Shown here piece by piece: positions 1-33,658 of a stretch of 64,000 nucleotides of DNA (positions are counted from its first letter, which is position 1; the number at the start of each line of letters is the position of its first letter). Origin of the DNA: Acidimicrobiia bacterium (GTDB lineage Bacteria > Actinomycetota > Acidimicrobiia > Spongiisociales > ZC4RG35); the NCBI GenBank assembly GCA_015488325.1, contig WFOA01000010.1:15945-79944 (forward strand), in the 5' to 3' direction. Both the position numbers and the translations under genes were made by a program. Below the pieces are notes generated by a model, which saw only the letters and a list, made by a program, of their open reading frames with translations, had not been told where the DNA came from and did no database searches.

Positions 1-1413
1 CACCTCGGCGGTCCGGTCGTCGACCCACGCGAACAGCGCCTCGTCTCCCCGTCCCAGACCGTCGACGACGAACACGCAGGCCGACCAGCCTTCGGCGTAG
101 CGGGCCAGGTCGTCGGGGGTCGGGTCGCCGCTCGGGTAGCCGATGGCGGTGACGCCGAGCATCAGTTCGGTGACCGCTGGTTTCCGGGAGATGACCGGTT
201 CCGTCTCCACCCGTCCGGCGGCGTCCCGATGGGCCTGGTAGAAGTCGAGCTCCTTCGTCGAAGGGCCGATGCTCTGGACGAAGCCGGACAGCCCGGCCGC
301 CAAAGCGACGGCTGCCATCGTCGCCAGGATCCCGTAGACGACACGCCGCTTCGTCGCCGCCGAACGGACCCGGTCTGCGGCCAGGCCGCCGAGCCGGTCG
401 AAGGCCACCGCCAGTCCCCCGAGGAGGACCGGGGCGACGGGGACGACGAGGCGGACCGACTCGGTGACCCTGATCGGCCAGGCCAGCAGGAGGAGGAGGT
501 ACACGGCGGTGCCCGAGACGACATCCCATCGGAAGGGTCGGGAACGACCGAGCAGACCCCACGCCATCGCCGCCAGGGTGGCGGCGGCGAGGGCCGGGCC
601 GAGGGGTGTCGCCAACACCCGGTAGGGCCAGACCAGTCGGGGGACGCCGTACCGTCCGAAGGTGACGATCCCCGACCCTATCTGGCGGGCGACGGAGGCG
701 ACGGGGCCGGCGGTCGCCGCGTTGGCGTCGTAGATGCTCTCGGCGATCTCGACGTAGCTCGGGTCGGCGACCGGCCCGGTGGCGAAATGGGCTGCGGCGG
801 CGCCGAGGATCAGGACCAGCGCCACGATGGCGACCCGGAGCCGGCGGCGGAGGCGGAGCAGCCACAGGATCCCGAAGAAGGGTGCGACGGCGATGCGGAC
901 GGCGACGGCCGCACCGGTGATGGCCGCCGCCCACATCCCCCGGCGGTCGTCCGCCAACAACACGAGGGCGACGAAGGCGAGCACGACCGGTTCGGGGTTG
1001 ATACCCCGGAGGAACCCGAGTCCGGCCTGACCGAGAGCGAAGGCTGCCGTCACGCCCAGGGAGGCCCAGGCCGTCGCCCGGAGACGGACCACCCGGTAGG
1101 TGAGGGCCAGGGCCGCCACCGCCACCCCCACCGTGAGGACCTCGATGGCCACCGTCGCCGCCGCCGGGTCGCCTCCGGTCGCCCACAGGACCGGGACGAG
1201 GAGGATCGGCAGACCGGGGCTGTACCGGGACCGGGCGACGTCGCCTTCGGAGAAGGCGATGGCGTCCCGCAGGTAGTAGGTGCCGTTGCCGAGCTCCAGG
1301 TCGGGGCCGACCCGGGCCAGTTGGAGGAGGGCGAAGCCGACGAGGACGACGACCAGCCAGAACCGTTCGTCGAATCGGATGATGCGGCGTGCCGGCTCCG
1401 CCTCAGTCGTCAC
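1..1413 (-). CDS. Polytopic integral membrane protein, 3' end beyond window edge (possible GT-C-like or glycan-modifying membrane protein; function uncertain)
   Basis: Absent from the ORF track because it runs off the window. The reverse frame from GTG at 1413 reads VTTEAEPARRIIRFDERFWLVVVLVGFALLQLARVGPDLELGNGTYYLRDAIAFSEGDVARSRYSPGLPILL... and stays open to nt 1 (...GLGRGDEALFAWVDDRTAEV). Many hydrophobic segments. The start overlaps the upstream gene's stop by 11 nt. Confidence 0.6.
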   Translation of the reverse strand, partial: MTTEAEPARRIIRFDERFWLVVVLVGFALLQLARVGPDLELGNGTYYLRDAIAFSEGDVARSRYSPGLPILLVPVLWATGGDPAAATVAIEVLTVGVAVAALALTYRVVRLRATAWASLGVTAAFALGQAGLGFLRGINPEPVVLAFVALVLLADDRRGMWAAAITGAAVAVRIAVAPFFGILWLLRLRRRLRVAIVALVLILGAAAAHFATGPVADPSYVEIAESIYDANAATAGPVASVARQIGSGIVTFGRYGVPRLVWPYRVLATPLGPALAAATLAAMAWGLLGRSRPFRWDVVSGTAVYLLLLLAWPIRVTESVRLVVPVAPVLLGGLAVAFDRLGGLAADRVRSAATKRRVVYGILATMAAVALAAGLSGFVQSIGPSTKELDFYQAHRDAAGRVETEPVISRKPAVTELMLGVTAIGYPSGDPTPDDLARYAEGWSACVFVVDGLGRGDEALFAWVDDRTAEV

Positions 1414-2890
1414 GCACGGTCACCTTCCGAGGCACCATGCGGCCACCCGTGTCGTCGGCGGAGACCTCCTCCAGGTATTCGGCGTCCTGGTTGACCCGCC
1501 ACTGGTCCCATTCCTGACCCGCCAGGTTCCGGGCGGCCATGAGTCCGGTCATCATGGCATGGTCCTGGTTGTTGTATTTGTGCATGCCGTTGCGGCCGCA
1601 GAGCTGGAGGTTGTCGAACTCGGCGTCGAGGTAGCTGCGGATCACCGCCACGTTGGCGGCGTATTCCTCGTCGTAGACGGGGTACGCCTTGTGCACCCGG
1701 ATCACCGTGCCGTCGATCACCTTGTCCGAGTCGATGAGCCCGATGGAGGCGAGCTCGCGGGATCCCCGCTCCAGCAGCTCCTCGTCGGTGGCGTCCCACA
1801 GGTCGTCGCCTTCGTTGCAGAAGTACTCCAACCCGAGGGCGGTGTGCCGCTGATCGGGCACCATCTCCGGCGACCAGTTCTTGAAGTTCTGGACCCTGCC
1901 CACCCGGACGGACGGGTCGTGGATGTAGATCCAGTTGTCCGGGAACACGTCCGGGTCGTCGAGGACGAGGACGACGGTGAGGAAGTCCCGATAGCGAAGG
2001 GCCCGGGCGGCGTCGAGGACCTCCGACGGCGGTTTCGGGCGGAGACCTTCGACGAGGGCACGGATCGGCATCGACGACACCATGGCGTCGACGGCGACCC
2101 GGCGCGACTCCGTCGCCGTCTCCACTTCGAGGGCCACCACCCGCCCACCGTCGTGGTGGATCTCCGCGACGCGGGTTCCCAACTGGACCGACACGCCTCG
2201 GGCGGCGAGGTCTTCGGCGACCCGTTCCCACATCATCCCGGGGCCGAGGCGGGGGTATTCGAACTCTTCGATGAGGGTCTTGACGATCTCTCCCCGTTGA
2301 CCGAACAGCGCTTGTTTCACCGCTCGGAACAGGGAGAGCCCTTTGATGCGCTGCGCCGCCCAGTCGGCCGAGATCTCCGAACAGGGCATCCCCCACACCT
2401 TCTCGGTGTAGGTCTTGAAGAAGATCTCGTAGAGCCGGCGACCGAAATGGGCGACGACCCAGTCCTCGAAGGAGACGATGTTTCGTTTCGGACGAAGCGT
2501 CGACGCCAGGTAGGAGAATCCACATCGGGCGGCTTCGACGACCCCGAGCTTGCGGAGGGCGTCTTTGGCGTCGAGGGGGTAGCGGAAAAACCGGCCCCGG
2601 TAGTAGATCCGGGACATCCGCTGGCGGACCAGGAAGTCCTCGTCGGGCAGGAACCGATGCCACAGTTCACGGATCTCGTCGCTCTTGGTGAAGAAACGGT
2701 GTCCACCGATGTCGAAGCGGTACCCGCCGTAGCGTTCGGTTCGTGACAGCCCTCCGACGAGGCTCGGATGAGCCTCGAACACCGTCGGTCGCAGCCCCAG
2801 CCGGTCCAGCTCCCAGGCGGCGGTGAGCCCCGCCGGCCCGGCGCCGACCACCCCGATCGTCCCTGAAGATCCGTCGCCCATCGCTCCCAT
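1403..2890 (-). CDS. NAD(P)/FAD-dependent oxidoreductase (amine-oxidase / UDP-galactopyranose-mutase-like fold)
   Basis: 495-aa ORF. N-terminal dinucleotide-binding motif IGVVGAGPAGLTAAWEL, then RFDIGGHRFF and FEYPRLGPGMMWE, typical of this flavoenzyme family. High GC3 coding frame. Confidence 0.8.
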   Translation of the reverse strand: MGAMGDGSSGTIGVVGAGPAGLTAAWELDRLGLRPTVFEAHPSLVGGLSRTERYGGYRFDIGGHRFFTKSDEIRELWHRFLPDEDFLVRQRMSRIYYRGRFFRYPLDAKDALRKLGVVEAARCGFSYLASTLRPKRNIVSFEDWVVAHFGRRLYEIFFKTYTEKVWGMPCSEISADWAAQRIKGLSLFRAVKQALFGQRGEIVKTLIEEFEYPRLGPGMMWERVAEDLAARGVSVQLGTRVAEIHHDGGRVVALEVETATESRRVAVDAMVSSMPIRALVEGLRPKPPSEVLDAARALRYRDFLTVVLVLDDPDVFPDNWIYIHDPSVRVGRVQNFKNWSPEMVPDQRHTALGLEYFCNEGDDLWDATDEELLERGSRELASIGLIDSDKVIDGTVIRVHKAYPVYDEEYAANVAVIRSYLDAEFDNLQLCGRNGMHKYNNQDHAMMTGLMAARNLAGQEWDQWRVNQDAEYLEEVSADDTGGRMVPRKVTVRDD

Positions 2891-2986
2891 CCCCTGTCGG
2901 ACGCCTCACGTTAGCCCAGATCGGAGAGAGCTCTATGGGTCGATCGACCTATGCGCCGGTGATGCTCCCCCGGGCTGCGTTCCGGC

Positions 2987-5200
2987 TCACGGGGCGAGGT
3001 AGGAGTGGAGGGCGTCCCCCACGGTCTCGGAGACGACCCCCGGACCTCCGAGGATGAAGATGCGGCGAGGGGCGAGCCGACCCAGCTCGGTGGCCGTCGC
3101 CCCCGGGATGGCGTCGGGACGGGTGAGGAGCACGGGACGTCCTCCGAGGCCTCCGGGGGGTCCGCCGGCGAGGGCGTCGGGATAGTCGAGACCGGTGGCG
3201 ACCAGGACTTCCTCGGCGGTGGCGAAGCTCCCCTGGGAGACCGCCGCCGCCGTGGCGTACCGGTCGGCGCCGGCCCTCCGCACGACGGTGTAGTCGGCCG
3301 CCAGGCTCGCCTCGACGTCCGAGGAGATCACCCCGGTTCCCCCGAGGAGCACCACCGTGGACACCCCCAGATCCGCCAGGGCCTGGCGGGTCACCGTCGG
3401 GACCTGATCGGTACGGGTGAGAAGCAGCGGCCCCGGGATCGAGCCGGCGGCGGGGGCACCGGCGAGGGCGTCCGGGTAGTTCTCCCCGGTGGCCAGGTAG
3501 GCGGTGGAGGCACCCGAAGGCCACTGGCCGGAGGCCACCGCCGCCGCCGTGGCGTACCGGTCGGGCCCGGCCCACCGCACCACCGCCGGGTTGGAAGGGA
3601 GCCCCGCCAACGCCGCCGCCACCGCGTCGGAGATCACCCCGGTCCCGCCGACGATCACCACGGTCTTCGGGGCGAGGCGAACCAGCTCCGCCAGGGTGGC
3701 CGACGGGACGGCGTCGGTGCGTACCAGCAGCACCGGGGCGGAGGCCGCCGCCGCCGCCGGTCCGGCGGCGAGGGCGTCGGGATAGTTGAGACCGGTGGCG
3801 ACGAACACGGTGGCGGCGCCGTCGGGGAAGAAATACGAGGAGACGGCCGCCGCCGTCCCGTACCGGTCGGCGGCCCACAGGCGGATGACGCTGAACGCCT
3901 CGCCGACGAAGACGTCGCCTTCGGCGTTGGTGTCGTCGCCCACCAGGTTCGACGCGAAGGAGTCGAAGGCGACGAACCGTCCGTCGTCGGAGACGGAAGC
4001 CGCCAGAGAGTCGCTGTTGGAGGGGGTGCCGTCGGAGGCCACCGACACCAGTTCGGCCCGGTTCGTCTGACGGTCGTAGACGAACACGTCCCGCCGGCCG
4101 TTGGTGTCGTCGGCCACCAGGTTCGAGGCGTAGGAGTCGAAGGCGACGAACCGTCCGTCGGCCGAGATCGAGGCGTCCTGGGAGGCACCGTCGGCCTCGG
4201 TGCCGTCGAAACCGACCGAGACCCGTTCGACGGTGTCGGTCTGGCGGTCGTAGACGAACACGTCCTTCGTCCCGTTGGTGTCCCCCGCCACCAGGTTCGT
4301 CGCCGACGACTCGAAGGCCACGTACCGGCCGTCGGCCGAGATCGAGGCGAAGAAGGAGTCGGCGTCCCCCTCGGTACCGTCGGAGGCGACCGAGACCCGT
4401 TCGACGGTGTCGGCCTGACGGTCGTAGACGAACACGTCGCGGGCTCCGTTGGTGTCCCCGGCCACCAGGTTCGAGGCCCACGAGTCGAACGCCACGAACC
4501 GTCCGTCGTCGGAGAGGACGGGAAGCACCGACGAGGCGTTGCCCTGCGTCCCTCCCGACGCCACCGACACCCGTTCGATGGTGTCGGTCTGACGGTCGTA
4601 GACGAACACGTCGGTGTTGGCGTTGGTGTCTCCCGGCACCAGGTTCGTCGCCGACGATTCGAAGGCCACGTACCGGCCGTCCCCGGAGATGGAGGGGAAA
4701 CGGGCCGGCCCGTTGCTCTCCGCACCGTCCCAGGCGATCGACACCCGTTCGACGGTGTCGGTCTGACGGTCGTAGACGAACACGTCCGAGATGCCGTTGG
4801 TGTCCCCCGCCACCAGGTTCGTCGCCGACGACTCGAAGGCCACGTACCGGCCGTCTGTCGACAGCGACGGATGGAGGGAACTGGCATCGCCCTGGGTGCC
4901 GTCCGAAGCCACCGACACCCGCTCCACCGCACCGGTCCAGCGGTCGTAGACGAAGATGTCGGCGGTGGCGTTGGTGTCCCCCGCCACCAGGTTCGTCGCC
5001 CACGACTCGAAGGCCACGTACCGGCCGTCCCCCGAGATGGACGCGAACAGCGAGTATCCGTCACCTTCGGTCCCGTCGCCCGCCACCGACACCCGGTCGG
5101 TCACTACCCGGGCGGCCGAGACAGGCCGCACGCCGACGACGCCGGCGACCAGGGCCACGACGCCGATCCCGGCGATCCACCGTCTCGTCTTCGAGGTCAC
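2987..5200 (-). CDS. Secreted cell-wall-associated protein: 7 PD40/TolB-like beta-propeller repeats plus 3 C-terminal CWB2 (cell wall binding repeat 2) domains
   Basis: Signal/TM segment KTRRWIAGIGVVALVAGVVGV. Seven repeats carry DGR[YF]VAF[ED]S..[ST]NLV.[GD]DTN...D[VI]FVYDR. Three repeats of ..DRY.TAAAV....F.......[VL]ATG..YPDAL...P.A......P[VL]LL.R.D..P. GTG at 5200 is preferred (GGAGGG 5 nt upstream); an alternative ATG lies at 5248. Confidence 0.85.
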   Translation of the reverse strand: MTSKTRRWIAGIGVVALVAGVVGVRPVSAARVVTDRVSVAGDGTEGDGYSLFASISGDGRYVAFESWATNLVAGDTNATADIFVYDRWTGAVERVSVASDGTQGDASSLHPSLSTDGRYVAFESSATNLVAGDTNGISDVFVYDRQTDTVERVSIAWDGAESNGPARFPSISGDGRYVAFESSATNLVPGDTNANTDVFVYDRQTDTIERVSVASGGTQGNASSVLPVLSDDGRFVAFDSWASNLVAGDTNGARDVFVYDRQADTVERVSVASDGTEGDADSFFASISADGRYVAFESSATNLVAGDTNGTKDVFVYDRQTDTVERVSVGFDGTEADGASQDASISADGRFVAFDSYASNLVADDTNGRRDVFVYDRQTNRAELVSVASDGTPSNSDSLAASVSDDGRFVAFDSFASNLVGDDTNAEGDVFVGEAFSVIRLWAADRYGTAAAVSSYFFPDGAATVFVATGLNYPDALAAGPAAAAASAPVLLVRTDAVPSATLAELVRLAPKTVVIVGGTGVISDAVAAALAGLPSNPAVVRWAGPDRYATAAAVASGQWPSGASTAYLATGENYPDALAGAPAAGSIPGPLLLTRTDQVPTVTRQALADLGVSTVVLLGGTGVISSDVEASLAADYTVVRRAGADRYATAAAVSQGSFATAEEVLVATGLDYPDALAGGPPGGLGGRPVLLTRPDAIPGATATELGRLAPRRIFILGGPGVVSETVGDALHSYLAP
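3893..5110 (-). repeat. Seven in-frame tandem coding repeats with an exact 174-nt (58-aa) period (propeller blades)
   Basis: The DGR[YF]VAF motif recurs at residues 74, 132, 190, 248, 306, 364 and 422 of the 753-aa track ORF. The period is a constant 58 aa with no indels. Confidence 0.85.
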
Positions 5201-5287
5201 CGAAACCCTCCACTCGTCCCCGTCGACACCTGTCGGACAGCGATGCACTCTAGCTTCCGCGCCTCCCCGGTCGAGGCCCAGTTCGGG

Positions 5288-6130
5288 TCAGAGTCGGCGG
5301 CCCCAGACCGCCAGGTCGAGGGAGGTGAGTTCCGACAGGTTACGGACCGACGCGTCGAGGCGGGCCGTCACCGACCCGGGAAGCGGCTGGTCCCGGGATT
5401 CCGCCCGCAGCCGTTCGGCCATCGGATCCCGGCGGAGCAGGAGGGGACGTACGAGCTTGCGGATCGCCCGGGGGGTGACCGGTTCGAGGCGCCGCAGCAG
5501 GCGGCTGTCGTACAGGCGCCTCATGAGGGGCGTGTAGTCGGGTTTGTCGGCGGTGACGTTCACGGCGACCCGGGGGTGGGGACTCGGCGGCAGATCCAGG
5601 AACGCCAGCACCTCGCTCCAGGCCGGATGCTCGCCGTCGACCAGATGTTCCATCTGGACGACCAGGAGCGCCTCGGTCCCGAACCGTTCGAGGAAGGGAG
5701 CCAGGGCCAGGTCGTAGAGGCTGCGGCGAACGTAGGGGTTGTCGGGTTCGGAGACGGCCTGGAGGAACGGTCGACGTTCCCTCCCATGATGCACTTCGTG
5801 CCGATAGTGGCTCCGCAGCCGGGTCTCCGGCTCCCGAAGCACACAGATGAGCCGCACCGACGGGCACATCTCGGCGATCCGAGCGGCGACCTCGGAGGCC
5901 ACCTGGGGGTCCGAGTACGCCACCGAAGCCTCCCCGGCGAGACCGTCGGTCGGGAACAGCGACCGGTAGCGCCGGTGGGCCCGGGAACCTGGCCCGTTGC
6001 CGGTGAGGAAGAACTCGGGTTCTTTCTCCCTGCACAGGATCGAACCCGACGCCTGCTGGAGCCACCGGAACAGGGCGGTGGTTCCCGATTTCATGGTGCC
6101 GACGATGATGAACTCGGGGTCGCGGCTCAT
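5288..6130 (-). CDS. Sulfotransferase family protein (PAPS-dependent)
   Basis: The N-terminal FIIVGTMKSGTTAL matches the 5'-PSB loop (P-loop-like K-x-G-T-T) of sulfotransferases. RLICVLREPETRLRSHY fits the 3'-PB region. ATG at 6130 is preferred over the upstream TTG at 6157. Confidence 0.75.
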   Translation of the reverse strand: MSRDPEFIIVGTMKSGTTALFRWLQQASGSILCREKEPEFFLTGNGPGSRAHRRYRSLFPTDGLAGEASVAYSDPQVASEVAARIAEMCPSVRLICVLREPETRLRSHYRHEVHHGRERRPFLQAVSEPDNPYVRRSLYDLALAPFLERFGTEALLVVQMEHLVDGEHPAWSEVLAFLDLPPSPHPRVAVNVTADKPDYTPLMRRLYDSRLLRRLEPVTPRAIRKLVRPLLLRRDPMAERLRAESRDQPLPGSVTARLDASVRNLSELTSLDLAVWGRRL

Positions 6131-6435
6131 CTCAGGCTGACGGCTCCGAGGACCCAAACCGTAGACGGACCGCCTCCCCCGGAACTCCGGGCGTCGGGAA
6201 ATCCGGCCCCGTCGTTCGACGGGGCCGTACGGTCGGCGGCGAACTCGGTCGGCGCGGGGGCGGGGCGGAAGGGATGTCGAGACACCTCCGTCGCGGTCTC
6301 GGTACGAGCCTAGCGGTCGCCCGATGGTGAACGTCGACGGACCCGGGACCGGACGAGTCCGGCCTCTGCGAACACCGTCCCCCTTTCCAGCATGAAGCCC
6401 CCGGGTAGCATGGGCGGTCGGTCAGACCAGCGGGA

Positions 6436-8226
6436 GTGATCATCGCCAGTCCAGGGCTTCGCCGAAGCCTCTCCGTCCTCCTCGAACCGGGACGCCGCGC
6501 CCGGTGGGGGTGGCTGGTGGTGCTCGCCGCCGTCAACGCCGCCGTCGAAGCCCTCGGCGCCCTCCTCATCTTCTTCGCCGTCAACCGGGTCACCCAGAGT
6601 CCGTCGACGACCCCCCTCGACGCCTGGTTCCCGCCCGGTTCAGACCGGGCCACCATGATGGTCGTGGCTGCGGTGATCGGCGGCTTCTTCCTCGCCCGTG
6701 CCGTCTTCACCGTCGGCCGCACGTGGTTCGAGCACCAGGTGATCCAACACACCGCCGCCCGCACCGCCGACCGCCTGTTCCGCCGCTACCTGGCCACTCC
6801 CTACCGTGTCCATCTGCGTCGAAGCTCGCCCGAGCTGATCCGCAACGCCATCACGTCGGTCGACGAAGTGGCGATGCGGTTCCTCACCCCCCTGGTGAGT
6901 GTCAGCGGCGAGGCCGTCATCGTCGTCGTGATGGTGGCGGTCCTCGCCGTCACGGCACCGGTGGTCACCGTCGTCGCCGCAGGAGCGATCGGCGTCGTCG
7001 GTTTCGCCCTCCTCCGGTTCGTGCGGGGACGCCTCCGGCAGGTGGGACGGCTGTCCGAGCGTTCCCAGCAGCGGTCCTTCGCCGCCATCCAACACGGACT
7101 CGGGGACCTGCGGAACATCAAGGTCTACGGCCGGGAACGGTTCTTCGCCGCCATCTTTCAGACCGAACGTCTCGGGTTCGCCCGGGCCCGCTACGAGATG
7201 GCCACCCTGTCGGTGGTGCCCCGGGTGGGGATCGAGACCCTCGTGTTCCTGATGGTGGTGGGGTTCCTCGCCGTCGCCTCCGCCGACGCCGCCGCCGAAT
7301 CCCTGTCGGTCCTGGGGCTCTTCGCCTACGCGGCCCTGCGGATCATGCCGGGCGTCAACCGGATCATCCACGGCCTCAACCGGATCCGGTTCGCCACCGC
7401 GGCCGTCGACAACGTGGTCGCCGACCTGAGCGGACCCGAACCGTCGCTTCCTCCCCTTCGCAACCGGGAGGCACCCCTCGAATGGTCGGCCGTCGTCTTC
7501 GAAGACGTCTCCTTCCGCTACGACGACGACGGACCGGAGGTGCTCTCGGGGATCGACCTGACCCTCCGCAAGGGGTCGTCGACGGGGCTGGTCGGTCCTA
7601 CCGGTGCCGGGAAGTCGACCCTCCTCGACCTGATCCTCGGTCTGTTGGAGCCGACCGGCGGGACGATCACCCTCGATGGACGTCCCCTCACCGACGTCCT
7701 CGACCGGTGGCAGGCGATGATCGGTCTCGTCTCCCAGGACATCTTCCTCCTCGACGACACCATCCGCCGAAACGTCGCCTTCGGGATCCCCGACGACGAG
7801 ATCGACGACGACAAGGTATGGAGGGCCCTCCGCCTCGCCCAGCTCGCCGACTTCGTGGAGCAGACCGACCGGGGTCTCGACACCCCGGTGGGCGAACGCG
7901 GGGTGTCGCTGTCGGGGGGACAGCGTCAGCGGGTGGCGATCGCCCGGGCCCTCTACCACGACCCCGAGATCCTCGTCTTCGACGAGGCCACCTCTTCGCT
8001 CGACCCCGTCACCGAACGGGACCTCCTCGACGCCATCGACCAGCTCGGACGAGACCGGACCGTCGTCATGGTCGCCCACCGGCTCTCCACCGTCGAACGC
8101 TGCGACCGGATCGTCGTCGTCGACGGTGGCCGGATCGTCGCCGAAGGGGACTTCGGGGAGCTGACCCGGGACAGCGCCCTGTTCCGCCGCCTCTCCGCCC
8201 CTACGAGGCTGCCCGAACCGACCTGA
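6436..8226 (+). CDS. ABC exporter, fused permease/ATPase (MsbA/type-1 exporter-like)
   Basis: 596 aa. N-terminal six-TM-type hydrophobic domain, Walker A GPTGAGKST, signature LSGGQRQR, Walker B ILVFDEATSSLD. Confidence 0.9.
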   Translation: MIIASPGLRRSLSVLLEPGRRARWGWLVVLAAVNAAVEALGALLIFFAVNRVTQSPSTTPLDAWFPPGSDRATMMVVAAVIGGFFLARAVFTVGRTWFEHQVIQHTAARTADRLFRRYLATPYRVHLRRSSPELIRNAITSVDEVAMRFLTPLVSVSGEAVIVVVMVAVLAVTAPVVTVVAAGAIGVVGFALLRFVRGRLRQVGRLSERSQQRSFAAIQHGLGDLRNIKVYGRERFFAAIFQTERLGFARARYEMATLSVVPRVGIETLVFLMVVGFLAVASADAAAESLSVLGLFAYAALRIMPGVNRIIHGLNRIRFATAAVDNVVADLSGPEPSLPPLRNREAPLEWSAVVFEDVSFRYDDDGPEVLSGIDLTLRKGSSTGLVGPTGAGKSTLLDLILGLLEPTGGTITLDGRPLTDVLDRWQAMIGLVSQDIFLLDDTIRRNVAFGIPDDEIDDDKVWRALRLAQLADFVEQTDRGLDTPVGERGVSLSGGQRQRVAIARALYHDPEILVFDEATSSLDPVTERDLLDAIDQLGRDRTVVMVAHRLSTVERCDRIVVVDGGRIVAEGDFGELTRDSALFRRLSAPTRLPEPT

Positions 8227-8237
8227 TCCGAACTGCC

Positions 8238-25498: not shown

Positions 25499-26585
25499 CG
25501 GGCGGATCCTCGTTCTCGTCTACGGGCTCGGCCTCGGCGGCGCCGAGAAGCTCCTCGCCACCTCGGCTCCGCTGTGGGCCGAGTCGTCGTTCACCTACCG
25601 GGTCGCCTACGTGCTCCCCTGGAAGGACCAGCTCGTCGACACCATCCGGAGGTCGGGAGTCGAGGTGGACTGTCTCGGAGGGAGAGCCTCCGACCCCCGG
25701 GTCGCCTTCCGACTGCGACGCCTCATCCGGTCCTGGAGACCCGATCTGGTCCATGCCCACCTTCCGATCGCCGGGACCATCGCCCGGGTCGTCTCCCCCG
25801 TCCCCGTCGTGTACACCGAGCACAACCTCGCCGGCTCCTACCGGCCTCTGGTCCGCCTCGGCAACCGGGTGACCTACCGGGCGAACGCGGCGGTGATCGC
25901 CGTGTCGGACGCCGTGGCATGCTCCCTCGAGGGCTACCCGGGCCCGACCCCTCGGGTCGTGCCCAACGGCGTGCTCTGCGAGGTCGGCGCCGACGAGGCG
26001 GAGGCGGCGAGACACGAACTCGACCTCGACCCTGACGCCAGACTCGTCGTACACGTGGGCAACCTCCGCCCCCACAAGGGACACCGGAACCTGGTCGAGG
26101 CAGCGGCGGTGCTGGAACAGGCCGGATCGAAGGCGATCCTGGTCTCCATCGGTGGGGAGAAACACCCCGGCGACCTCGAACGCCTCCGAGCCGAAGTCGC
26201 CGCCCGGGGTCTCGAGCACCGGCTCAGATTCCTCGGCCGTCGCGAAGACGCCCGGGCGTTCATCGCCGCCGCCGACGTGTTCGTCAGCCCCGCCGACGTG
26301 GAGGGGCTCCCCGTGGCGATCCTCGAAGCCCTCGCCCTGGGCCGCCCGGTGGCGGCGACGGCGGTGGGGGGTGTCCCCAGCGTCGTCGTCGACGGTGAAA
26401 CCGGAATCCTGGTACCGCCGGGCGACCCGGAAGCCCTCGCCGAGGCCGTCGAACGCCTCCTCGCCGACGCCGAATGGGCGGCGCGGCTGGGCAAGGCGGG
26501 ACAGGCCCTCGTGGAGACCGAGTACGGCCTCGAGAAGATGGTGGACGCCTACGAACGGGTGTACCGAGAGATCCTCGGGACATGA
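25479..26585 (+). CDS. Glycosyltransferase family 4
   Basis: ILVLVYGLGLGGAEKLL at the N-terminus. C-terminal FVSPADVEGLPVAILEALALGRPVAATAVGG (E-x7-E). Confidence 0.85.
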   Translation: MSSPETDGRILVLVYGLGLGGAEKLLATSAPLWAESSFTYRVAYVLPWKDQLVDTIRRSGVEVDCLGGRASDPRVAFRLRRLIRSWRPDLVHAHLPIAGTIARVVSPVPVVYTEHNLAGSYRPLVRLGNRVTYRANAAVIAVSDAVACSLEGYPGPTPRVVPNGVLCEVGADEAEAARHELDLDPDARLVVHVGNLRPHKGHRNLVEAAAVLEQAGSKAILVSIGGEKHPGDLERLRAEVAARGLEHRLRFLGRREDARAFIAAADVFVSPADVEGLPVAILEALALGRPVAATAVGGVPSVVVDGETGILVPPGDPEALAEAVERLLADAEWAARLGKAGQALVETEYGLEKMVDAYERVYREILGT

Positions 26586-27526
26586 CCGGCCCGAGCATCC
26601 GCCTCGCCCGACCCGACGATCTCCCCCAGATCCTCGACGTCCTGCGGGCCGCCCTGGGCGAGACGCCCCTGTTGCGACGCACCCCGGAGCTGTGGCGTTG
26701 GAAACACGTCGAGAACCCCTTCGGGCCGTCTCTGGTCCTCGTCGCCGAAGCCGACGGCCGGGTCGTCGGGGTACGGGCCTTCATGCGTTGGGAGTTGGAG
26801 ACGCCCGACGGTGACACCCTCCGGTGCGTCAGGGCGGTCGACACCGCCACCCATCCCGACTATCTGCGACGGGGGATCTTCCGGCGTCTGACCGAGTCGG
26901 CGATCGAATACGCCCGGGACGAAGGGGTGGATCTGGTCTTCAACACCCCCAACGCCAAGTCGGGGGCGGGATACCTGAAGATGGGGTGGCGGACCGTCGC
27001 CCGACTCGGGGTGATCGTCCGATGGCGGACGGGTCGGGTCGCACCCCTCGATTCCGATACCGTGCCCCGCCTCGACGACCATGTGGCGGCGGTCGACCCG
27101 CTGGATCCGCTGCCCCCGGCCAGACGGGGACACGGTCTCAGGACTCCCCGCCGCGACGCCTACCTCCACTGGAGGTTCTCACAGCATCCGACGGCACGCT
27201 ACGGAGCCGTCCGGTTCGGATCCGGGACCGCCGTGGTGCGACCCAACGTCCGTGCAGGACGCCGGGAGCTGGTGGTGTCGGACGTCCTCGGTGACGCCAC
27301 CGCGGGGCTGTTCCGGGAGGTGGCGAAGAGGAACCGCTCCCGCTACGTGGCCACCTGGTTCTCCCCGGCGGCACCGGAACGGCGCATAGCCCGACGTGCC
27401 CTGTACGCTCCGGTTCCGGGACTGCGGACCCTCACCCTCGTGGCCCGACCGCTACGGTCCCTCCCCGTGGACGTCTTCGATCTGGGGAACTGGGATCTGG
27501 CGGTGAGCGACCTGGAGTTGCTGTGA
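26582..27526 (+). CDS. GNAT family N-acetyltransferase
   Basis: ATG 26582 (ATGA overlap with the GT4 stop). IRLARPDDLPQILDVL...VRAVDTATHPDYLRRGIFRRLTESAIEYA is GNAT motif A-like. Confidence 0.75.
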   Translation: MTGPSIRLARPDDLPQILDVLRAALGETPLLRRTPELWRWKHVENPFGPSLVLVAEADGRVVGVRAFMRWELETPDGDTLRCVRAVDTATHPDYLRRGIFRRLTESAIEYARDEGVDLVFNTPNAKSGAGYLKMGWRTVARLGVIVRWRTGRVAPLDSDTVPRLDDHVAAVDPLDPLPPARRGHGLRTPRRDAYLHWRFSQHPTARYGAVRFGSGTAVVRPNVRAGRRELVVSDVLGDATAGLFREVAKRNRSRYVATWFSPAAPERRIARRALYAPVPGLRTLTLVARPLRSLPVDVFDLGNWDLAVSDLELL

Positions 27527-28869
27527 GACAGCAGATCGTCCTCGGGATCGGCGCCGGGTTGACGGCACTGGTCGCGTTCGTCCTCGCCGCCGGCGCCGTC
27601 CCCCTCCACCTCGTGGTGCTGGCGGTGGCCGGCCTCTCCGTCACCTACCTGGTGGGTCGGGCGATGGCGACGGACTTCGACCGGTCCTGGCTCCCCGGTC
27701 TCCTGGTGGCCGGACTGGCCGCGAAGCTGGTCGGGGCCTGGGTCCGGTACTTCGTCCTCATCGAGGTGTACGGCGGTGTGGGTGACGCCCTCGGATACCA
27801 CAGCCGAGGCCTCCGCCTCGCCGAGATGTTCCGGGCGTTCACGGTCCCCACCTTCGAGGACGCCGGTTTCGGGTCGACCGGCACCCGGTTCGTCTCCTGG
27901 TTCACGGGTCTCGTCTACACGCCGTACCAGCCCGAGCCCCTCGGCGGTTTCTGGCTGTTCTCGCTGATCGCGTTCGCCGGCACGGTTCTCTTCTACGCGG
28001 CGGTGCGACGCAGCCTGCCACCGTCGACGTGGCGGCGGTTCCTCATCATGCTGATGTTCTGGCCGACGCTGCTGTACTGGCCGTCGTCGGTGGGCAAGGA
28101 AGCCCTGATCCTGGGCTTCGGAGGGGTGGTGACCTACGGGGCGGCGCGGCTGTTCGAGCGGTACCGCCTGAGCTGGCTGCTCGTCATCGGCGCGGCGATG
28201 GCCGTCATAGGCATCATCCGGGTCCACGTCGCCGGCCTGTTCGCCGGAGCGATCGTCGTCGGCATGCTCGTCTCCGCCGCACCTCGCGGTGCAGGCCCGA
28301 AGAGTCGCCGCCTCCTCCTCATGGCGGCCGGGTTCGCGGCGCTCATCCCCCTGGCCGCCCTGGTCTCGAGGGAGTTCGGCATCGACCCCAGCGGCCCCCT
28401 CGACCCCTCCGCCCTCGAGCCGGTCCTGTCCGAGGTGGCCCGCACCACCGGCCAGGGAGGCTCGGCGGTGCAGGGCGGGGTGATCCGCTCCATCGCCGAC
28501 GTCCCGGCCGGTGTCCTCAAGGTGTTGTTCCGTCCCCTCCCCTACGAGGCGTCCAACATCCAGATGCTGGCGGCCAGCGTCGAGGGCGTGGCGTTGCTCC
28601 TGTTGATCCTCTCCCGCACCCCGTGGATGATCGGGAACCTGCGTCGGCTGCGCCGCTTCCCGTATCTGATCTTCGCCGCCACGTTCTCGGCCGGTTTCGT
28701 GGTGGCCTGGAGCGCGATCCTCAACCTGGGGATCATCGCCCGCCAGCGGGCCCTCGTCATCCCCTTCGTCCTGACCCTCGTCGCCGGCCTCGGCTGGCCC
28801 CTGGCCGCCGGCGAGGAGCCGGCTTCCGCTGCCGAACCCGACCGGGACGCCGCCCTCAACCCCACTTGA
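27523..28869 (+). CDS. Polytopic membrane protein, candidate Wzy-type polymerase / O-antigen-ligase-like
   Basis: 448 aa with about 10-12 hydrophobic segments and no soluble domain. GTGA overlap with the GNAT stop. The functional call is by context only. Confidence 0.55.
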   Translation: MRQQIVLGIGAGLTALVAFVLAAGAVPLHLVVLAVAGLSVTYLVGRAMATDFDRSWLPGLLVAGLAAKLVGAWVRYFVLIEVYGGVGDALGYHSRGLRLAEMFRAFTVPTFEDAGFGSTGTRFVSWFTGLVYTPYQPEPLGGFWLFSLIAFAGTVLFYAAVRRSLPPSTWRRFLIMLMFWPTLLYWPSSVGKEALILGFGGVVTYGAARLFERYRLSWLLVIGAAMAVIGIIRVHVAGLFAGAIVVGMLVSAAPRGAGPKSRRLLLMAAGFAALIPLAALVSREFGIDPSGPLDPSALEPVLSEVARTTGQGGSAVQGGVIRSIADVPAGVLKVLFRPLPYEASNIQMLAASVEGVALLLLILSRTPWMIGNLRRLRRFPYLIFAATFSAGFVVAWSAILNLGIIARQRALVIPFVLTLVAGLGWPLAAGEEPASAAEPDRDAALNPT

Positions 28870-29794
28870 GCGCGGCCCCCACGGCGCCGACCACCGCCAG
28901 CACCCCGGTGACCGCCGCCGCGCCCACCCCGGCCCACCACCAGGCGGCGACGACCGCGCCACATAGGAGCGCCTGCGCCCCGGCGGCCACGAACACGACC
29001 GTCGGCACGCTCCACCCCCGGTCGGCCAGCCGGTCGTAGAGATGGGACCGGTCCCCTTGGAACAGGGGCATCCCCGCCCTCCGCCGTCGCAGCACCGTCG
29101 AGACGAGGTCGACGAGGAACACGCCGAGCAACGAGCCGCCGGCGACCATCCCGACCACGTCTTCGCCTCCCAGCCGGACACCGGAGGCCACGAGCATCAG
29201 GCCGACCAGGTAGCTGCCGTTGTCCCCGAGGAACACCCGCGCCGGATGCCAGTTGAAGACACCGAACCCGACCAAGGCGGCACCGAGGGCGACTTCGGCA
29301 CCGAGATCCGCTCCCGACGTCGACCCGACCAGCCCCATCGCCACCAGCGTCACCAGGGCCACCGACGCGACCAACCCGTCGAGGCCGTCGAAGAGGTTCA
29401 CGGCGTTGATCCCCACCACCACGCCGGCGGCGACGAGGGCACCGCCGACGGGTCCGACCCCGAGAGCCCAGGCCACGAGCACCCCGGCGACGGCTTCGAC
29501 GGCGAGCCTGAGCACCGGGGGCAGGCCTCTGCGGTCGTCGACCAGCCCCAACGCGACCACCAGCCCTGCCGCGACCATCAGCCTCGGGGAGGGACGTCCG
29601 GTGAGTATCGACGAGACGACGAGGGCGCCGTACAGCCCCACCCCTCCGAGGGGCACCGCCGGGACCGTGTGGACTTTCAGGGCCTCCCCGGGTCGGTCGA
29701 CGATCCCCAGTCGGGGGCCGAGCGCCGGTGCGATCGCCGACCACCCGGCGGAGACGACTGCGGCGGCGAGCCCTCCGGCGATCAGGCCGACCAC
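28856..29794 (-). CDS. Polyprenyl-phosphate N-acetylhexosamine-1-phosphate transferase (WecA/MraY family)
   Basis: GLVDDRRGL, INAVNLFDGLDGL and VFLGDNGSYL are hallmark MraY/WecA motifs. The start is set at in-frame GTG 29794; upstream track-ORF residues are R/G/P-rich junk. Confidence 0.85.
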   Translation of the reverse strand: MVGLIAGGLAAAVVSAGWSAIAPALGPRLGIVDRPGEALKVHTVPAVPLGGVGLYGALVVSSILTGRPSPRLMVAAGLVVALGLVDDRRGLPPVLRLAVEAVAGVLVAWALGVGPVGGALVAAGVVVGINAVNLFDGLDGLVASVALVTLVAMGLVGSTSGADLGAEVALGAALVGFGVFNWHPARVFLGDNGSYLVGLMLVASGVRLGGEDVVGMVAGGSLLGVFLVDLVSTVLRRRRAGMPLFQGDRSHLYDRLADRGWSVPTVVFVAAGAQALLCGAVVAAWWWAGVGAAAVTGVLAVVGAVGAALKWG

Positions 29795-31554
29795 ACCAGC
29801 ACCTCCGAGGTCTCGCCGCGGTGGACTTCGATCGTCCCCACCGGTTCGAACCCCATCTTCCGGTAGGCGGCGATCGCCGCCGAGTTGTCGGCGCCCACGA
29901 CCACCTTCACCTTCCCCACGCGGCTCATCGCGGTGAGGAGCTCCCGTCCCAGAACGGTGCCGATCCCTCGACCGCGCCGATCCGCCACCACCGCCATCGA
30001 CACCAGTTCGGCGTCGACGCCGACGTCGCCGCCTTCGTAACGGAAGGTCTCCCAGGCCCGCCGCAGCATCGTCGGGCGCAGCAACCGAGGTGCGGCCGCC
30101 ACGACCGCCCGGATCCCGAAGCGACGGACGAAGGAACGGTAGAAGGCGCCGATGTCGGCGACGCCGGCGACGAACCCGACCGGCCCGCACTCGTCCTCGG
30201 CGACGAGCACGACGGCGTCTTCGTGTTCCACGAGCGCACGGTAGAGGAGTGTCATGAACCGGCGTCCCAGACGGGGCAGGAAACCGGTGGAGATCGCTTG
30301 CGCGTGCAGGACGGCCAGGAAACGGGTGTCCCCTTCGTCGGCCCGCCGGACCCGGACCTCGCCGGAAGGTCCGTCGCCGAGGGCGGCCGCCAGCCGGTCC
30401 AGGCCTTTGGTGAGGGCGAGCTCCCGATAGGTGGAGAGGACGATCTCGACGACCCTGTCCTCGTCGAAGAGCCGTCTGGCCCGTTCGCGCCCGGCCCGGC
30501 CCATCCGAGAGGCCAGCTCCGGGTCGTCCCCGATGGTCCGGATCGCCCGGGCCAGGGACCGGGCGTCGGAGACGGGGACGAGGAGGCCGTTCTCGCCGTC
30601 GGCGACGACCTCCCGGCATCCCCGGATGTCGGTGGCGACGATGGGCAGGCCCATGGCGGCAGCCTCCATCGCCGCCCGGGGGAAGCCTTCACGGTGCGAC
30701 GGGAGCACGAACACGTCCATCGTCGGGTAGAGGGCATCGACGTCGGTGCGCATCCCCAGGAACCGGACGCCGTTCGCCTTCGCCCGTTCGATCATCGCGT
30801 CGCCGAGGTCGTCCGCCTTTTCGGGGTCCCGGGGCCCGATGCAGACCACCACGTACCGGTCGTCGAGGAGTCGGGCGGCCTCGAAGAGCTCCGGGTAGCC
30901 CTTCTCCGCCACCATCCGCCCCACCATGCCCACCACCACCGCGTCCGACGGGATGCCGAGCTCGGCACGCATCCGATCCCGATGGGACCGGTCGTACCGG
31001 GCGGGATCGAACCGGGCGAGGTCGACACCGTTGCCGAGATGCCGTGTCCGAGCCCGGGGTGCGAGACGCAGCCTGTGGGCCAGTTCGAGATCCTCCGCGC
31101 TCTGATAGAGCTCGGCGTCGGAGAACCGGGAGGCGACGAACTCCAGGGCGTAGACGACCAGGCGTTTCAGCGGTGGATCGTCGGGGGCCGCGTAGAAGCC
31201 GTGCACCGTGTTGACGACGACGGGCACGCCGGCCACACGGCCGAGGATCCGACCGTAGACGCCGGGTTTGGGGTTGTGGGTGTGCAGCACGTCCGGTCGG
31301 AGCCGCCTCAGCACCCTCCAGAGCTGGGCGGCTGCCCGCAGGTCGGCGCCGAGGCTCATCCCACGTGTCGACGCCGACAGTGCCACATGTTCGATGCCTG
31401 CCGCCTCCAGCTCGGCCACCCAGGGGCCGGGAGAGGAGATCCCCACCGACCGGATGTCCCTCTGGAGGGGTGCGAGGAGCTGGGGGAACACCAGGTAGCG
31501 GAGGGACAGGTCCACCGTCGTCAGGTGGGCGATCACCGGGCGCCGATCAGCCAT
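29782..31554 (-). CDS. Bifunctional fusion: GT4 glycosyltransferase (N) plus GNAT acetyltransferase (C)
   Basis: N-terminal half: VIAHLTTVDLSL...VLPSHREGFPRAAMEAAAMGLPIVATDIRG (E-x7-E). C-terminal ~190 aa: ...LVSMAVVADRRGRGIGTVLGRELL...AAIAAYRKMGFE (GNAT motif A/B). Confidence 0.85.
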   Translation of the reverse strand: MADRRPVIAHLTTVDLSLRYLVFPQLLAPLQRDIRSVGISSPGPWVAELEAAGIEHVALSASTRGMSLGADLRAAAQLWRVLRRLRPDVLHTHNPKPGVYGRILGRVAGVPVVVNTVHGFYAAPDDPPLKRLVVYALEFVASRFSDAELYQSAEDLELAHRLRLAPRARTRHLGNGVDLARFDPARYDRSHRDRMRAELGIPSDAVVVGMVGRMVAEKGYPELFEAARLLDDRYVVVCIGPRDPEKADDLGDAMIERAKANGVRFLGMRTDVDALYPTMDVFVLPSHREGFPRAAMEAAAMGLPIVATDIRGCREVVADGENGLLVPVSDARSLARAIRTIGDDPELASRMGRAGRERARRLFDEDRVVEIVLSTYRELALTKGLDRLAAALGDGPSGEVRVRRADEGDTRFLAVLHAQAISTGFLPRLGRRFMTLLYRALVEHEDAVVLVAEDECGPVGFVAGVADIGAFYRSFVRRFGIRAVVAAAPRLLRPTMLRRAWETFRYEGGDVGVDAELVSMAVVADRRGRGIGTVLGRELLTAMSRVGKVKVVVGADNSAAIAAYRKMGFEPVGTIEVHRGETSEVLVWSA

Positions 31555-33658
31555 CGATCGTGCTCCTCAGGACCTGCTCGTACCGGTCGATGCTCGCACC
31601 CATCGTGTACCTGCGGGCCAGCTCCCGGGCGGCGGCACCCATCCGGCGGCGACGCTCGGGATCCGCGGCGAGGTTCTTCAGGGCGGCGGCGGCACCTTCG
31701 ACGTCCCCGGGCCGGACCAGGATCCCCGTCGTACCGTCGGTCACCACTTCGGGGGTGCCTCCCACCCGGGTCGCCACCACCGGACGTCCCGCCGCCGCGG
31801 CCTCCAGCACGACGCCGGGGAGCCCTTCGGTGCGGGAGGTGGACAACAGCACGTCCGCCCATCCGAACAGCTCTTCCATCTCCGCCGCCGAACCGAGGAC
31901 CTCGATCCGGGGACCCGCCGCCGCCTCGACTTCGGTGCGCAACGGGCCGTCACCGGCGATCTTCGCCCACACGTCGGCGTCGGCCGCGGCGAGGTTGATC
32001 GCCTGCACCGCCGTCAGCGGGTCCTTCTCCGTGGACAGGGCGCCGGCCACCAGCACCCGCAGCTCGGGGTGCGGGAGGGGCGGGTCCAGCTCGAACCAGT
32101 GGTCGGGCACGCCGGTGGGCGCGACCGTGACCCGGTCGGGGGCCACACCCATCGAGTCGATGAGCTGGCTGCGGGTGGCCTCCGACACGGCGGTGATCCG
32201 GTCGCAACGTCCGAGGAGGTACCGCTGGATCCGAGCGTGCCACGGGCCCCGCACCCAGTACCGGGGTTCACCGATCGACGAGTAGACGACGCGGGGACGC
32301 CCGGGCATGAACCTGGTGGCGGCGACGACGGTCCGCAGGGTGGCTCCTCCGTTGGCCAGGACGACGTCGGGCCGGCGCCGCCGGAGGAGCCTGCGCAACA
32401 GCCGTGGCAGCGCCACGTCGGAGACGTCGGCTCCCCCGACGGCGTCGTCCACCTGGACCCGGGGGTCGGATCCGCCGGCTCTGAGGGCCACCAGGCTCGC
32501 CTTCCATCCCCGTGCCCGCAGGCCCTCGACGAGACGTTCACCGAACACTTCGGCGCCGCGTCGCCGATCGGAGCTGACCAGCACCATCACCGACCCGAAC
32601 CGGTCCCCCTTCGAGGCGACGACCCGCCGACGCCAGCGCGGGTAGGCGCGGGGGGCCCGCAGCGCCAGCACCGCCCGGTCGAGCCGTCGGTCGGCGTGGA
32701 GGGTGACCGCCAGGTTGAGGAGATGGGGCCTCTTCCCGTCGAACCGCACCAGGTCGGTGCGGGGGAGCAACTCCCGGGCGACCCGGAGGGGGAGACCGCC
32801 GGTGGAGGTCTCCGCCAACACCTCCCCGGGTACGGCGGCTCCCAGGGCGGAGGCGACGCTCCAGGCCAGATGCCCGAACCCGGCCAGGCCGTGGTCGTGG
32901 GCGAAGCGGACCGCCGTCTCCCAGTCGAGGCCGTGCCGGGCGACTTCGACGAGGTCACGGAACAGCACCAGCCGGAACCGATGATCCAAGAGGGCGTGGG
33001 TACACAGGAACGCCGCCACGACCTCGTCGGGCAGCAGCCACCCGAGGTGGGTCTGGTCCGGCTCGGGGGGACGTGCCCGCTCCCACGCCTGCTCGGTCGC
33101 TCCGGCGGCGCGGCCGCGGAGTTGACGGTACGAGAAGAGGTCCCAGTGCAGGTCGACGTTGAAGACCACCCCGGAGGGGTCGCGGAACGGGATGTCCCGT
33201 TTGTCGGCTCTCGGTCGCTTCGGTGGAATCCCCAGACATTCGGGGTCGGAGGCGACGATCTCAAGGGTGCGACCGAGTTCGGCGGACGGGACGACCAGAT
33301 CGAGGTCGGTGAAGATCCGCTGGCCCGGGGTCGGGTAGAGCCGGTCCGCCAGCGCGGGCCCCTTCACCACCGCCGCTCGGATGCCGGCGGCGGCGAGGCG
33401 TTCCATGAGGCGACGGAGGCTGCGGCGCATCACGATGCCCAGGGCGACCGCCCGGGTCTGCACGGTGGACAGCTCGTGGCGATCGACGACGTCGCCGGGG
33501 GTGAGCAGGCCGACCAGACCGTGGCTACAGGCGAGTTCGAAGACGGCGCCGTCGACCGACCCGGCCGGGCGTTCCCATCCTGCCGCCACCGCCGCCAGCA
33601 CCCGTTCGGCGGGATCGGCCGCGAACAGCCATCCTTCGTTCGGTTCGGTGCCCCTCAC
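31547..33658 (-). CDS. Fusion: uncharacterised nucleotidyltransferase-family domain (NTP_transf_5-like, N) plus GT4 glycosyltransferase (C)
   Basis: N-terminus: ...IRAAVVKGPALADRLYPTPGQRIFTDLDLVV...FNVDLHWDLF. C-terminus: ...LLSTSRTEGLPGVVLEAAAAGRPVVATRVGG (E-x7-E). Confidence 0.75.
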   Translation of the reverse strand: MRGTEPNEGWLFAADPAERVLAAVAAGWERPAGSVDGAVFELACSHGLVGLLTPGDVVDRHELSTVQTRAVALGIVMRRSLRRLMERLAAAGIRAAVVKGPALADRLYPTPGQRIFTDLDLVVPSAELGRTLEIVASDPECLGIPPKRPRADKRDIPFRDPSGVVFNVDLHWDLFSYRQLRGRAAGATEQAWERARPPEPDQTHLGWLLPDEVVAAFLCTHALLDHRFRLVLFRDLVEVARHGLDWETAVRFAHDHGLAGFGHLAWSVASALGAAVPGEVLAETSTGGLPLRVARELLPRTDLVRFDGKRPHLLNLAVTLHADRRLDRAVLALRAPRAYPRWRRRVVASKGDRFGSVMVLVSSDRRRGAEVFGERLVEGLRARGWKASLVALRAGGSDPRVQVDDAVGGADVSDVALPRLLRRLLRRRRPDVVLANGGATLRTVVAATRFMPGRPRVVYSSIGEPRYWVRGPWHARIQRYLLGRCDRITAVSEATRSQLIDSMGVAPDRVTVAPTGVPDHWFELDPPLPHPELRVLVAGALSTEKDPLTAVQAINLAAADADVWAKIAGDGPLRTEVEAAAGPRIEVLGSAAEMEELFGWADVLLSTSRTEGLPGVVLEAAAAGRPVVATRVGGTPEVVTDGTTGILVRPGDVEGAAAALKNLAADPERRRRMGAAARELARRYTMGASIDRYEQVLRSTIDG

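Follow-up and report, generated by a model that had tools for sequence, protein, structure and literature searches.

In the 64-kb stretch of the contig WFOA01000010.1 analyzed here (hereafter, the window), a gene encoding a 737-aa propeller protein with three CWB2 wall-binding repeats is located among polysaccharide genes, and this region belongs to a super-locus for surface-glycan biosynthesis, at least 45 kb long, in an uncultured Acidimicrobiia bacterium. The window's SufB shares 86–91% identity with proteins that, where they bear an organism name, are nearly all labeled "Acidimicrobiia bacterium". A comparison of related lineages indicates that the CWB2 gene belongs to a variable 7.5-kb cassette (window positions 2857–10384), which also includes genes for two glycosyltransferases (GTs), an ABC exporter and a sulfotransferase. 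The encoded protein is probably a surface protein anchored to the wall non-covalently, and it is plausible, at a probability of roughly 0.4, that the ligand of its CWB2 module is the polymer made by the surrounding genes. Acidimicrobiia is a widespread, mostly uncultured class of actinobacteria; to our knowledge, nothing has been reported on its wall polymers or surface-protein anchoring, and we know of no CWB2 ligand outside C. difficile. Literature searches on PRK07208, Acidimicrobiia S-layers and CW_binding_2 returned nothing relevant.

Raw ORF lists were useless at the 70% GC of the window, and genes were called using third-position GC (GC3) bias together with frame plots. The called genes matched the lengths given by the ENA and JGI pipelines on sister contigs. 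Domain identities were determined using Pfam scans, NCBIfam, PDB sequence searches and AlphaFold2 (AF2) models compared with Foldseek.

The 737-aa protein consists of seven 58-aa PD40-type blades followed by the C-terminal CWB2 triplet, which is encoded by positions 2990–3931. Each CWB2 repeat contains the motif P-[VL]-L-L (PVLL, PLLL and PVLL in repeats 1–3, respectively). A PILL motif is conserved in each CWB2 repeat and its ILL part is needed for anchoring (Willing et al. 2015, PMC4973711). A PDB sequence search with the triplet found the solved modules of Cwp6 (5j72, E = 6.6e-27), Cwp8 (5j6q, 1.7e-21) and SlpA (7acy, 2e-12). Outside the CWB2 part, the protein showed no similarity to SlpA, and no catalytic domain was detected in it by Pfam. 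With three repeats, the motif in each of them and the likeness to the Cwp6, Cwp8 and SlpA modules, the triplet named in the original prediction is bona fide, and its sequence shows the features that characterize the wall-anchoring module of C. difficile. Since every sequence-level test of the triplet came out in its favor, anchoring of the protein at the cell surface is likely. The further proposal of an S-layer-like system is unsupported: there is one CWB2 gene, and neither SecA2 nor features of a lattice protein were found.

The N-terminus of the protein, KTRRWIAGIGVVALVAGVVGVRPVSA-A, reads by inspection as an RR-containing signal peptide, possibly of the twin-arginine translocation (Tat) type. 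Given this resemblance to a twin-arginine motif, Tat may be the export route of the propeller, which would then cross the membrane folded. The twin-arginine-like stretch is T-R-R-W-I-A in the window protein (positions 5100–5200) and A-R-R-A-I-L in the sister species. The GTG start codon of the CWB2 gene is preceded by a GGAGG site 8 nt upstream, and the exact 737-aa sequence is present in metagenome-assembled genome (MAG) contigs from both NCBI and ENA. Two otherwise identical propeller-CWB2 proteins of the sister species (L165:6384-8420 and L001:10001-12211; 678 and 736 aa) differ by exactly one 58-aa blade, which reflects either true variation in blade number or an assembly collapse of the repeat.

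The comparison of lineages provided the strongest support for a functional link between the anchor gene and the glycan genes. The sister contig L083 carries an identical CWB2 protein, and the sister contig L002 is 99.65% identical at the nucleotide level. A second species (L001 and L165; 73–79% nucleotide identity) keeps the order sulfotransferase, CWB2 protein, FAD enzyme resembling UDP-galactopyranose mutase (UGM) and membrane protein with a probable GT-C fold. Synteny with the window extends over sequence of 76–79% nucleotide identity, and the CWB2 gene retains its place at about 77%. The ABC exporter was found only in the window species and is absent from L001 and L165, in which an extra sulfotransferase gene is located near the corresponding position. 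The third lineage (L166 and L167) aligns to window positions 10385–13730 and 23–2856 at 73–74% nucleotide identity and lacks all the genes between these flanks, namely those for GT4a, GT2a, the ABC protein, the sulfotransferase and the CWB2 protein; their place is taken by a single unrelated 280-aa GT2. Because this lineage lacks exactly this block, the CWB2 anchor gene appears to co-vary with genes determining glycan structure.

In the third lineage, dnaG-rpoD is found where the window has a 20-kb block (13.7–33.7 kb). With some blocks kept and others missing there, sequence comparison shows the locus to be a mosaic and not one operon: it consists of three or more blocks, each of which varies independently of the others among related lineages. 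Nor does it start at position 1, which is only the edge of the window. The sister contigs L083 and L002 extend the locus leftward by at least 10 kb and contain, among others, the remainder of the GT-C gene, further GTs (two GT4s and one GT2), a second deacetylase, a methyltransferase and a second flippase (Polysacc_synt, weak MurJ match). The dedicated 33-kb locus that had been proposed was therefore not confirmed, and the continuation of glycan genes to the left places the CWB2 gene in the middle of the locus. On its right side, the locus does end near 33.66 kb: genes for an alpha/beta hydrolase and acyl-CoA dehydrogenases come next, and the 34–64 kb part of the window contains housekeeping genes. 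The features of the locus are listed in Table 1.

Table 1. Features called in the glycan locus of the window (SDR, short-chain dehydrogenase/reductase; PAPS, 3'-phosphoadenosine 5'-phosphosulfate; PCP, polysaccharide co-polymerase)
Feature	Position	Strand	Evidence
Polytopic membrane protein, probably GT-C fold	1-1413	-	Weak Pfam GT87 match, E 2.5e-4, below cutoff
FAD enzyme, PRK07208 family, like eukaryote-type UGM	1403-2881	-	Pfam Amino_oxidase, NAD_binding_8; NCBIfam NF005548
18-nt near-perfect palindrome ATGGGTCGATCGACCTAT	2935-2952		Between CWB2 stop codon and UGM-like start
Probably secreted surface protein, 737 aa, propeller + 3xCWB2	2987-5200	-	Pfam CW_binding_2 (PF04122), E 3.8e-53, 3 stretches; PD40; Kelch
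Cytoplasmic PAPS-type sulfotransferase	5288-6130	-	Pfam Sulfotransfer_3, 32.3 bits (cutoff 27)
Fused ABC exporter, MsbA/PglK/HepA type	6436-8226	+	Pfam ABC_membrane, ABC_tran; NCBIfam MsbA 1e-92, HepA, PglK, all below cutoffs
GT2 (one of the GT2a/GT4a cassette pair)	8238-9140	-	Pfam
GT4-type GT (cassette)	9223-10404	+	Pfam
GT2, conserved core	10395-11300	-	Pfam; orthologs in L001, L165, L166
Wzx flippase, conserved core	11323-12897	+	PF13440 (Polysacc_synt_3), E 1.5e-66; orthologs in L001, L165, L166
GT2, conserved core	12876-13739	-	Pfam; orthologs in L001, L165, L166
Oxidoreductase with DRL_cat, NAD_binding_3 and SAF domains	13755-14906	-	Pfam
RmlA	14903-15808	-	Pfam
SDR	15805-16842	-	Pfam
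RmlC	16839-17429	-	Pfam
GT4	17501-18850	-	Pfam
Polysaccharide deacetylase	18847-19629	-	Pfam
PCP-like protein, 931 aa	19634-22429	-	TIGR01007 at 6.8e-15, below cutoff
CapD/PglF-type membrane UDP-GlcNAc 4,6-dehydratase	22420-24285	-	Pfam Polysacc_synt_2, 1.5e-105; NCBIfam PseB/FnlA-like
SDR epimerase/reductase, divergent to CapD-like gene	24614-25498	+	Pfam Epimerase, 3.4e-52
GT4	25479-26585	+	Pfam
GNAT	26582-27526	+	Pfam
448-aa polytopic membrane protein, GT-C(A) fold	27523-28869	+	AF2 model
WecA-like Glycos_transf_4 initiator	28856-29794	-	Pfam; WecA TIGR02380 at 2.3e-20, best NCBIfam match, below cutoff
GT4 with C-terminal GNAT	29782-31554	-	Pfam
NTP_transf_5 + GT4	31547-33658	-	Pfam

As predicted originally, the CWB2 gene is co-directional with its neighbors and lies between the sulfotransferase gene and the pair encoding the FAD enzyme and the membrane protein. 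The sulfotransferase contains the 5'-phosphosulfate-binding loop VGTMKSGTT and a 3'-phosphate-binding-like segment LREPETRLRSHY (REPxxRxxS) and has no transmembrane (TM) segments. The protein listed earlier as an FAD oxidoreductase is an FAD enzyme and is better read as pyranose/furanose-mutase-like (UGM-like). Its NCBIfam match NF005548 (PRK07208, "hypothetical protein") has an E value of 4e-217, and UGMs make up the top 18 of its PDB matches and 24 of the 26 listed. The alignment with the T. cruzi UGM 4dsg (E = 1.5e-22) covers the full length (residues 9–459) and includes the GGH loop, KVW, R, KxYP and Y..NQDH motifs, the residues of which we take to have flavin and substrate roles. The score against the bacterial Glf equivalog TIGR00031 was 28.2 bits, below the cutoff of 303.75. 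A generic amine oxidase or a phytoene desaturase was rejected for this protein, because UGMs dominate the PDB matches and carotenoid models are far below their cutoffs.

The PRK07208 UGM-like family has a very wide distribution, with at least 597 hits in metagenomes and a GC content ranging from 34 to 71%. In 80 metagenome loci of this family (L085–L164), its genes often precede those for polytopic membrane proteins, some of them GT87, PMT_2 or HAD-UbiA, which hints that the family supplies donors for GT-C transferases. The membrane protein following the UGM-like enzyme in the window is 489 aa long in full; its last 18 aa are encoded to the left of the window, and at the start its reading frame shares 11 nt with the upstream gene. 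Its sequence contains 10 or more hydrophobic segments, and a distant homolog (P0163) carries PF09594. An AF2 model built from 6 sequences had low confidence (pLDDT 61.7). The top 10 Foldseek matches of the model were all GT-C proteins (STT3, ArnT, AftA, DPY19 and ALG3), and by these consistent but weak matches the protein probably has a GT-C fold. The neighborhoods of two other distant homologs (P0161 and P0162) were too short or too different to be informative.

Both L001 and L166, the latter of which has no CWB2 gene, have kept the palindrome in front of the UGM-like gene. It occurs once in the window, and 8 of 100 shuffles yielded a match. It is considered a candidate operator or promoter element of the UGM-like/GT-C pair and suggests that this pair has its own control region. 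A consensus scan of positions 1–9500 for promoters and terminators found nothing in the intergenic gaps, and all four terminator-like matches were intragenic.

If the polymer made by the surrounding genes is the ligand, the CWB2 triplet would hold the propeller at the cell surface, bound non-covalently to a wall-associated glycopolymer, most likely the variant that these genes specify. Synthesis of the polymer would begin with the WecA-like enzyme acting on undecaprenyl phosphate. The chain would then be extended by the GT2 and GT4 enzymes with a 6-deoxyhexose and N-acetyl or de-N-acetylated amino sugars, sulfated in the cytoplasm by the PAPS-type sulfotransferase and flipped by Wzx-type or ABC flippases. 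The GT-C enzymes would decorate it outside the membrane, possibly with furanose side groups, as suggested by the pairing of one of them with a UGM-like mutase. Extracytoplasmic GT-C enzymes are typical of wall polysaccharides, including arabinogalactan, streptococcal rhamnose polysaccharides and the glycosylation of teichoic acids. A narrower version, to which we give little credence, is that the 7.5-kb cassette could be a self-contained module of ligand and reader, in which the GTs and the sulfotransferase make a sulfated wall epitope, the CWB2 triplet binds it specifically and both are exchanged together between lineages. If this were true, sulfate would play the part of the phosphodiester in C. 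difficile PSII or of pyruvate in SLH systems, and the rule that a triplet module reads an anionic mark on a wall polymer would gain a new chemistry. A cassette combining a CWB2 protein with glycan-modifying genes provides a concrete, testable candidate ligand, and the sister lineages are a natural with/without comparison.

To place the gene among other CWB2 loci, the CWB2 triplet was searched in 185,579 species genomes, which resulted in 80 loci. The best matches (46–54% identity) came from Acidimicrobiia, Dermatophilaceae and Chloroflexia MAGs, and many loci belonged to Kineococcus, Rathayibacter, Ornithinimicrobium, Curtobacterium, Coriobacteriia and Firmicutes. CWB2 had already been noted in Actinobacteria (review PMC5817068). 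High-GC lineages commonly have CWB2 triplets, and their presence in one more such lineage is not new. Glycan genes within 10 kb of the CWB2 loci were counted using single-sequence phmmer searches with the glycan proteins of the window, an approach that undercounts divergent GTs. The clearest glycan-linked loci were those of Rhodoglobus (L029) and Curtobacterium (L060), in which rml, GT2 and ABC genes are interspersed among the CWB2 genes. Fusion with a PD40 propeller was found only in the close relatives L001 and L002 among 172 CWB2 ORFs of L001–L082. The propeller type itself is widespread and is joined to many unrelated C-terminal modules, including SLH in other phyla (P0013, P0055 and P0057).

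The original claim that this locus makes the wall glycan anchoring the protein is thus partly upheld. In its favor are the CWB2 module, the co-variation within the cassette, the glycan genes on both sides of the CWB2 gene, the mid-locus position kept in the second species, the PAPS-binding motifs of the sulfotransferase, the extracytoplasmic GT-C enzymes, the glycan-linked CWB2 loci of some other actinobacteria and the precedent of the C. difficile PSII locus. Several observations weigh against it. No LCP (LytR_cpsA_psr) ligase was found in Pfam scans of the called window genes or in the gene lists of the sister contigs (about 80 kb in all), and wall linkage is therefore not indicated. Only about 4 of the 80 CWB2 loci had two or more glycan-gene matches within 10 kb, so adjacency of CWB2 and glycan genes is not a general rule. 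A search of the 64-kb window revealed no further ORF for a CWB2 or propeller protein, and no CWB2 was found in the sister-contig extensions. The co-variation of the cassette represents a single gain or loss event. In L001 and L165, the gene directly upstream of the CWB2 gene, encoding the extra sulfotransferase, is divergently oriented. Finally, the intergenic gaps flanking the CWB2 gene are 87 and 105 nt long, and the palindrome lies in the 105-nt gap. These gaps, and the retention of the palindrome where the CWB2 gene is absent, make co-transcription of the CWB2 gene with the downstream UGM-like/GT-C pair doubtful, and the suggested embedding in an operon is not established.

These observations lend some weight to adjacency without a ligand relation, in which CWB2 would bind another wall component (a polymer made elsewhere or a peptidoglycan-associated glycan) and its gene would be cargo of a hypervariable surface island. 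The lack of an LCP ligase is in line with this explanation, as are the other CWB2 loci, in most of which CWB2 paralogs cluster together and no glycan genes were detected nearby. The CWB2 gene also probably has its own promoter, considering the divergent upstream gene in L001 and the conserved palindrome before the next gene. We nevertheless regard mere cargo as rather unlikely, because the gene was gained or lost together with two GTs and the sulfotransferase and its position is conserved in two species. It was also considered that the propeller protein is a glycan acceptor, O-glycosylated by the locus or by the UGM-like/GT-C pair, as in S-layer glycosylation clusters. The CWB2, UGM-like and GT-C genes are adjacent and co-directional, the GT-C fold matches include the protein glycosyltransferases STT3/PglB, PMT and DPY19, and the SLCT-11 cluster of C. 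difficile (PMC6254364) offers a precedent. Such a role is improbable: the pair is kept in the lineage without CWB2, where it must have another substrate, no Wzy_C or O-antigen-ligase-type transferase was detected, and none of the 80 PRK07208 metagenome loci has a CWB2 or PD40 neighbor. Even less probable, in our opinion, is an accessory role of the protein in glycan assembly or turnover, for example, as a factor that is tethered to the wall and binds or processes the polymer as it is made. The placement of the gene within a biosynthetic cassette is consistent with such a role, PD40/TolB-type propellers are often ligand-binding envelope proteins and propellers of this type are also joined to other anchors, SLH among them. 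However, the protein has no detected catalytic domain, its propeller family is spread over many unrelated architectures and the core glycan locus exists without the propeller-CWB2 gene.

The linkage of a CWB2 anchor gene to a wall-glycan locus repeats a pattern known from C. difficile, to which the sulfotransferase-bearing cassette and the cassette-less comparator add a twist. In C. difficile, the AP (PSII) locus directly adjoins the slpA/cwp genes (Willing 2015, PMC4973711). Both systems have a protein, here probably secreted, with three tandem CWB2 repeats and a PILL-type motif, and in both its gene is linked to a large wall-polymer locus including a MurJ/MviN-like flippase. The differences are the single CWB2 gene here instead of about 29 paralogs, the lack of a SlpA-like lattice protein, SecA2 and an LCP ligase in the locus, the PD40 propeller as passenger, sulfate rather than phosphodiester as the mark of the candidate ligand and the Acidimicrobiia host. 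The C. difficile SLCT-11 cluster (24 kb; rml, GTs, ABC transporter and ligase) adjoins slpA and O-glycosylates SlpA (Richards 2018, PMC6254364). As in the window, a variable cassette sets the gene of a CWB2 protein beside rml, GT and ABC transporter genes, and strains or lineages differ by its presence. In SLCT-11, however, a dedicated ligase attaches the glycan to the protein, whereas none is recognizable here.

Part of the repertoire is also shared with a wall polysaccharide pathway of actinobacteria. The arabinogalactan pathway of Corynebacteriales comprises WecA, dTDP-Rha, the UGM Glf, GT2 galactofuranosyltransferases, an ABC flippase, GT-C arabinosyltransferases and Lcp1. The locus contains a WecA-like enzyme, RmlA/C, a UGM-like mutase, GT2s, an ABC exporter and two GT-C(A) enzymes, with fold matches including AftA, AftB and PimE. 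Unlike in that pathway, the UGM is of the eukaryote-like PRK07208 family and not Glf, the ABC protein is of the MsbA/PglK type and not Wzm/Wzt, and the locus has a sulfotransferase and Wzx-type flippases and no LCP. In Bacillus and Paenibacillus, SLH-domain proteins bind a pyruvylated secondary cell-wall polymer (SCWP). The shared logic would be a triplet wall-binding module that recognizes an anionic group carried by a secondary wall polymer, but the domain family is different and a CsaB pyruvyltransferase is absent from the locus.

GC3 frames and Pfam showed that the original inventory was almost wholly right (eight GTs, the WecA-like initiator, Wzx, the CapD-like dehydratase, two SDRs, RmlA/RmlC, the deacetylase, two GNATs, the sulfotransferase and the ABC protein), having missed the DRL/SAF oxidoreductase and the NTP_transf_5 domain. 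Its combination of Wzx/Wzy-type and ABC-exporter parts stands with regard to Wzx (Polysacc_synt_3) and the fused ABC protein and is doubtful with regard to Wzy. No separate ABC-2 permease and ATPase (Wzm/Wzt) were found, and the sole exporter is a fused MsbA/PglK-type half-transporter.

Positions 13755–19629 form one long minus-strand run of sugar-nucleotide and modification genes, the stops and starts of which overlap or abut; this block was not found at the corresponding position in L166. No RmlB or RmlD equivalog was recognizable near the rmlA/rmlC run, and since the run also contains the DRL/SAF oxidoreductase, the 6-deoxyhexose of the locus may be other than plain L-rhamnose. The 931-aa protein next to this run has the topology of a PCP, as proposed earlier, namely two TM segments (12–30 and 285–318) with a coiled-coil loop between them, followed by a BY-kinase-like domain. 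In that domain the P-loop is degenerate (VTGLGTQPED): the Walker A lysine is missing, and there is no tyrosine cluster. The C-terminal part of this protein (about 380 aa) shows weak likeness to the C-terminal region of the BREX methyltransferase PglX (residues 742–855, E = 3e-10, far below cutoff).

The protein previously described as Wzy-like is the 448-aa membrane protein, and no Wzy could be demonstrated. It matched neither Wzy_C nor EpsG, and an AF2 model of very high confidence (pLDDT 91.8) shows a GT-C(A) fold. In fold it matches lipid-P-sugar transferases of the GT-C(A) type, with no match to WaaL or SEDS proteins, some Wzy clans being without a solved structure (PMC10920833). The family comprises about 2,500 representative clusters, has no Pfam or NCBIfam model and shows invariant residues D88, K192, R233, R337, R407 and R409. 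The protein may represent a new GT-C family. Both this family and the PRK07208 UGM-like/GT-C pairing represent unannotated glycan enzymes that merit curation.

At positions 6436–13739, six consecutive single genes alternate in strand (ABC +, GT2 -, GT4 +, GT2 -, Wzx + and GT2 -). Where two of them converge, the 3' ends overlap or abut; one divergent gap is only 22 nt, and the order is kept in the sister lineages. The idea that the cassette came from a mobile element was set aside, as no transposase or integrase domain was found among the called protein-coding genes and the GC content is flat at 0.69–0.71 across the cassette. In addition, a probably secreted protein with CarboxypepD_reg and a DUF4015 putative glycosyl hydrolase domain is encoded at positions 52974–54515; it has housekeeping neighbors and is unrelated to the locus.

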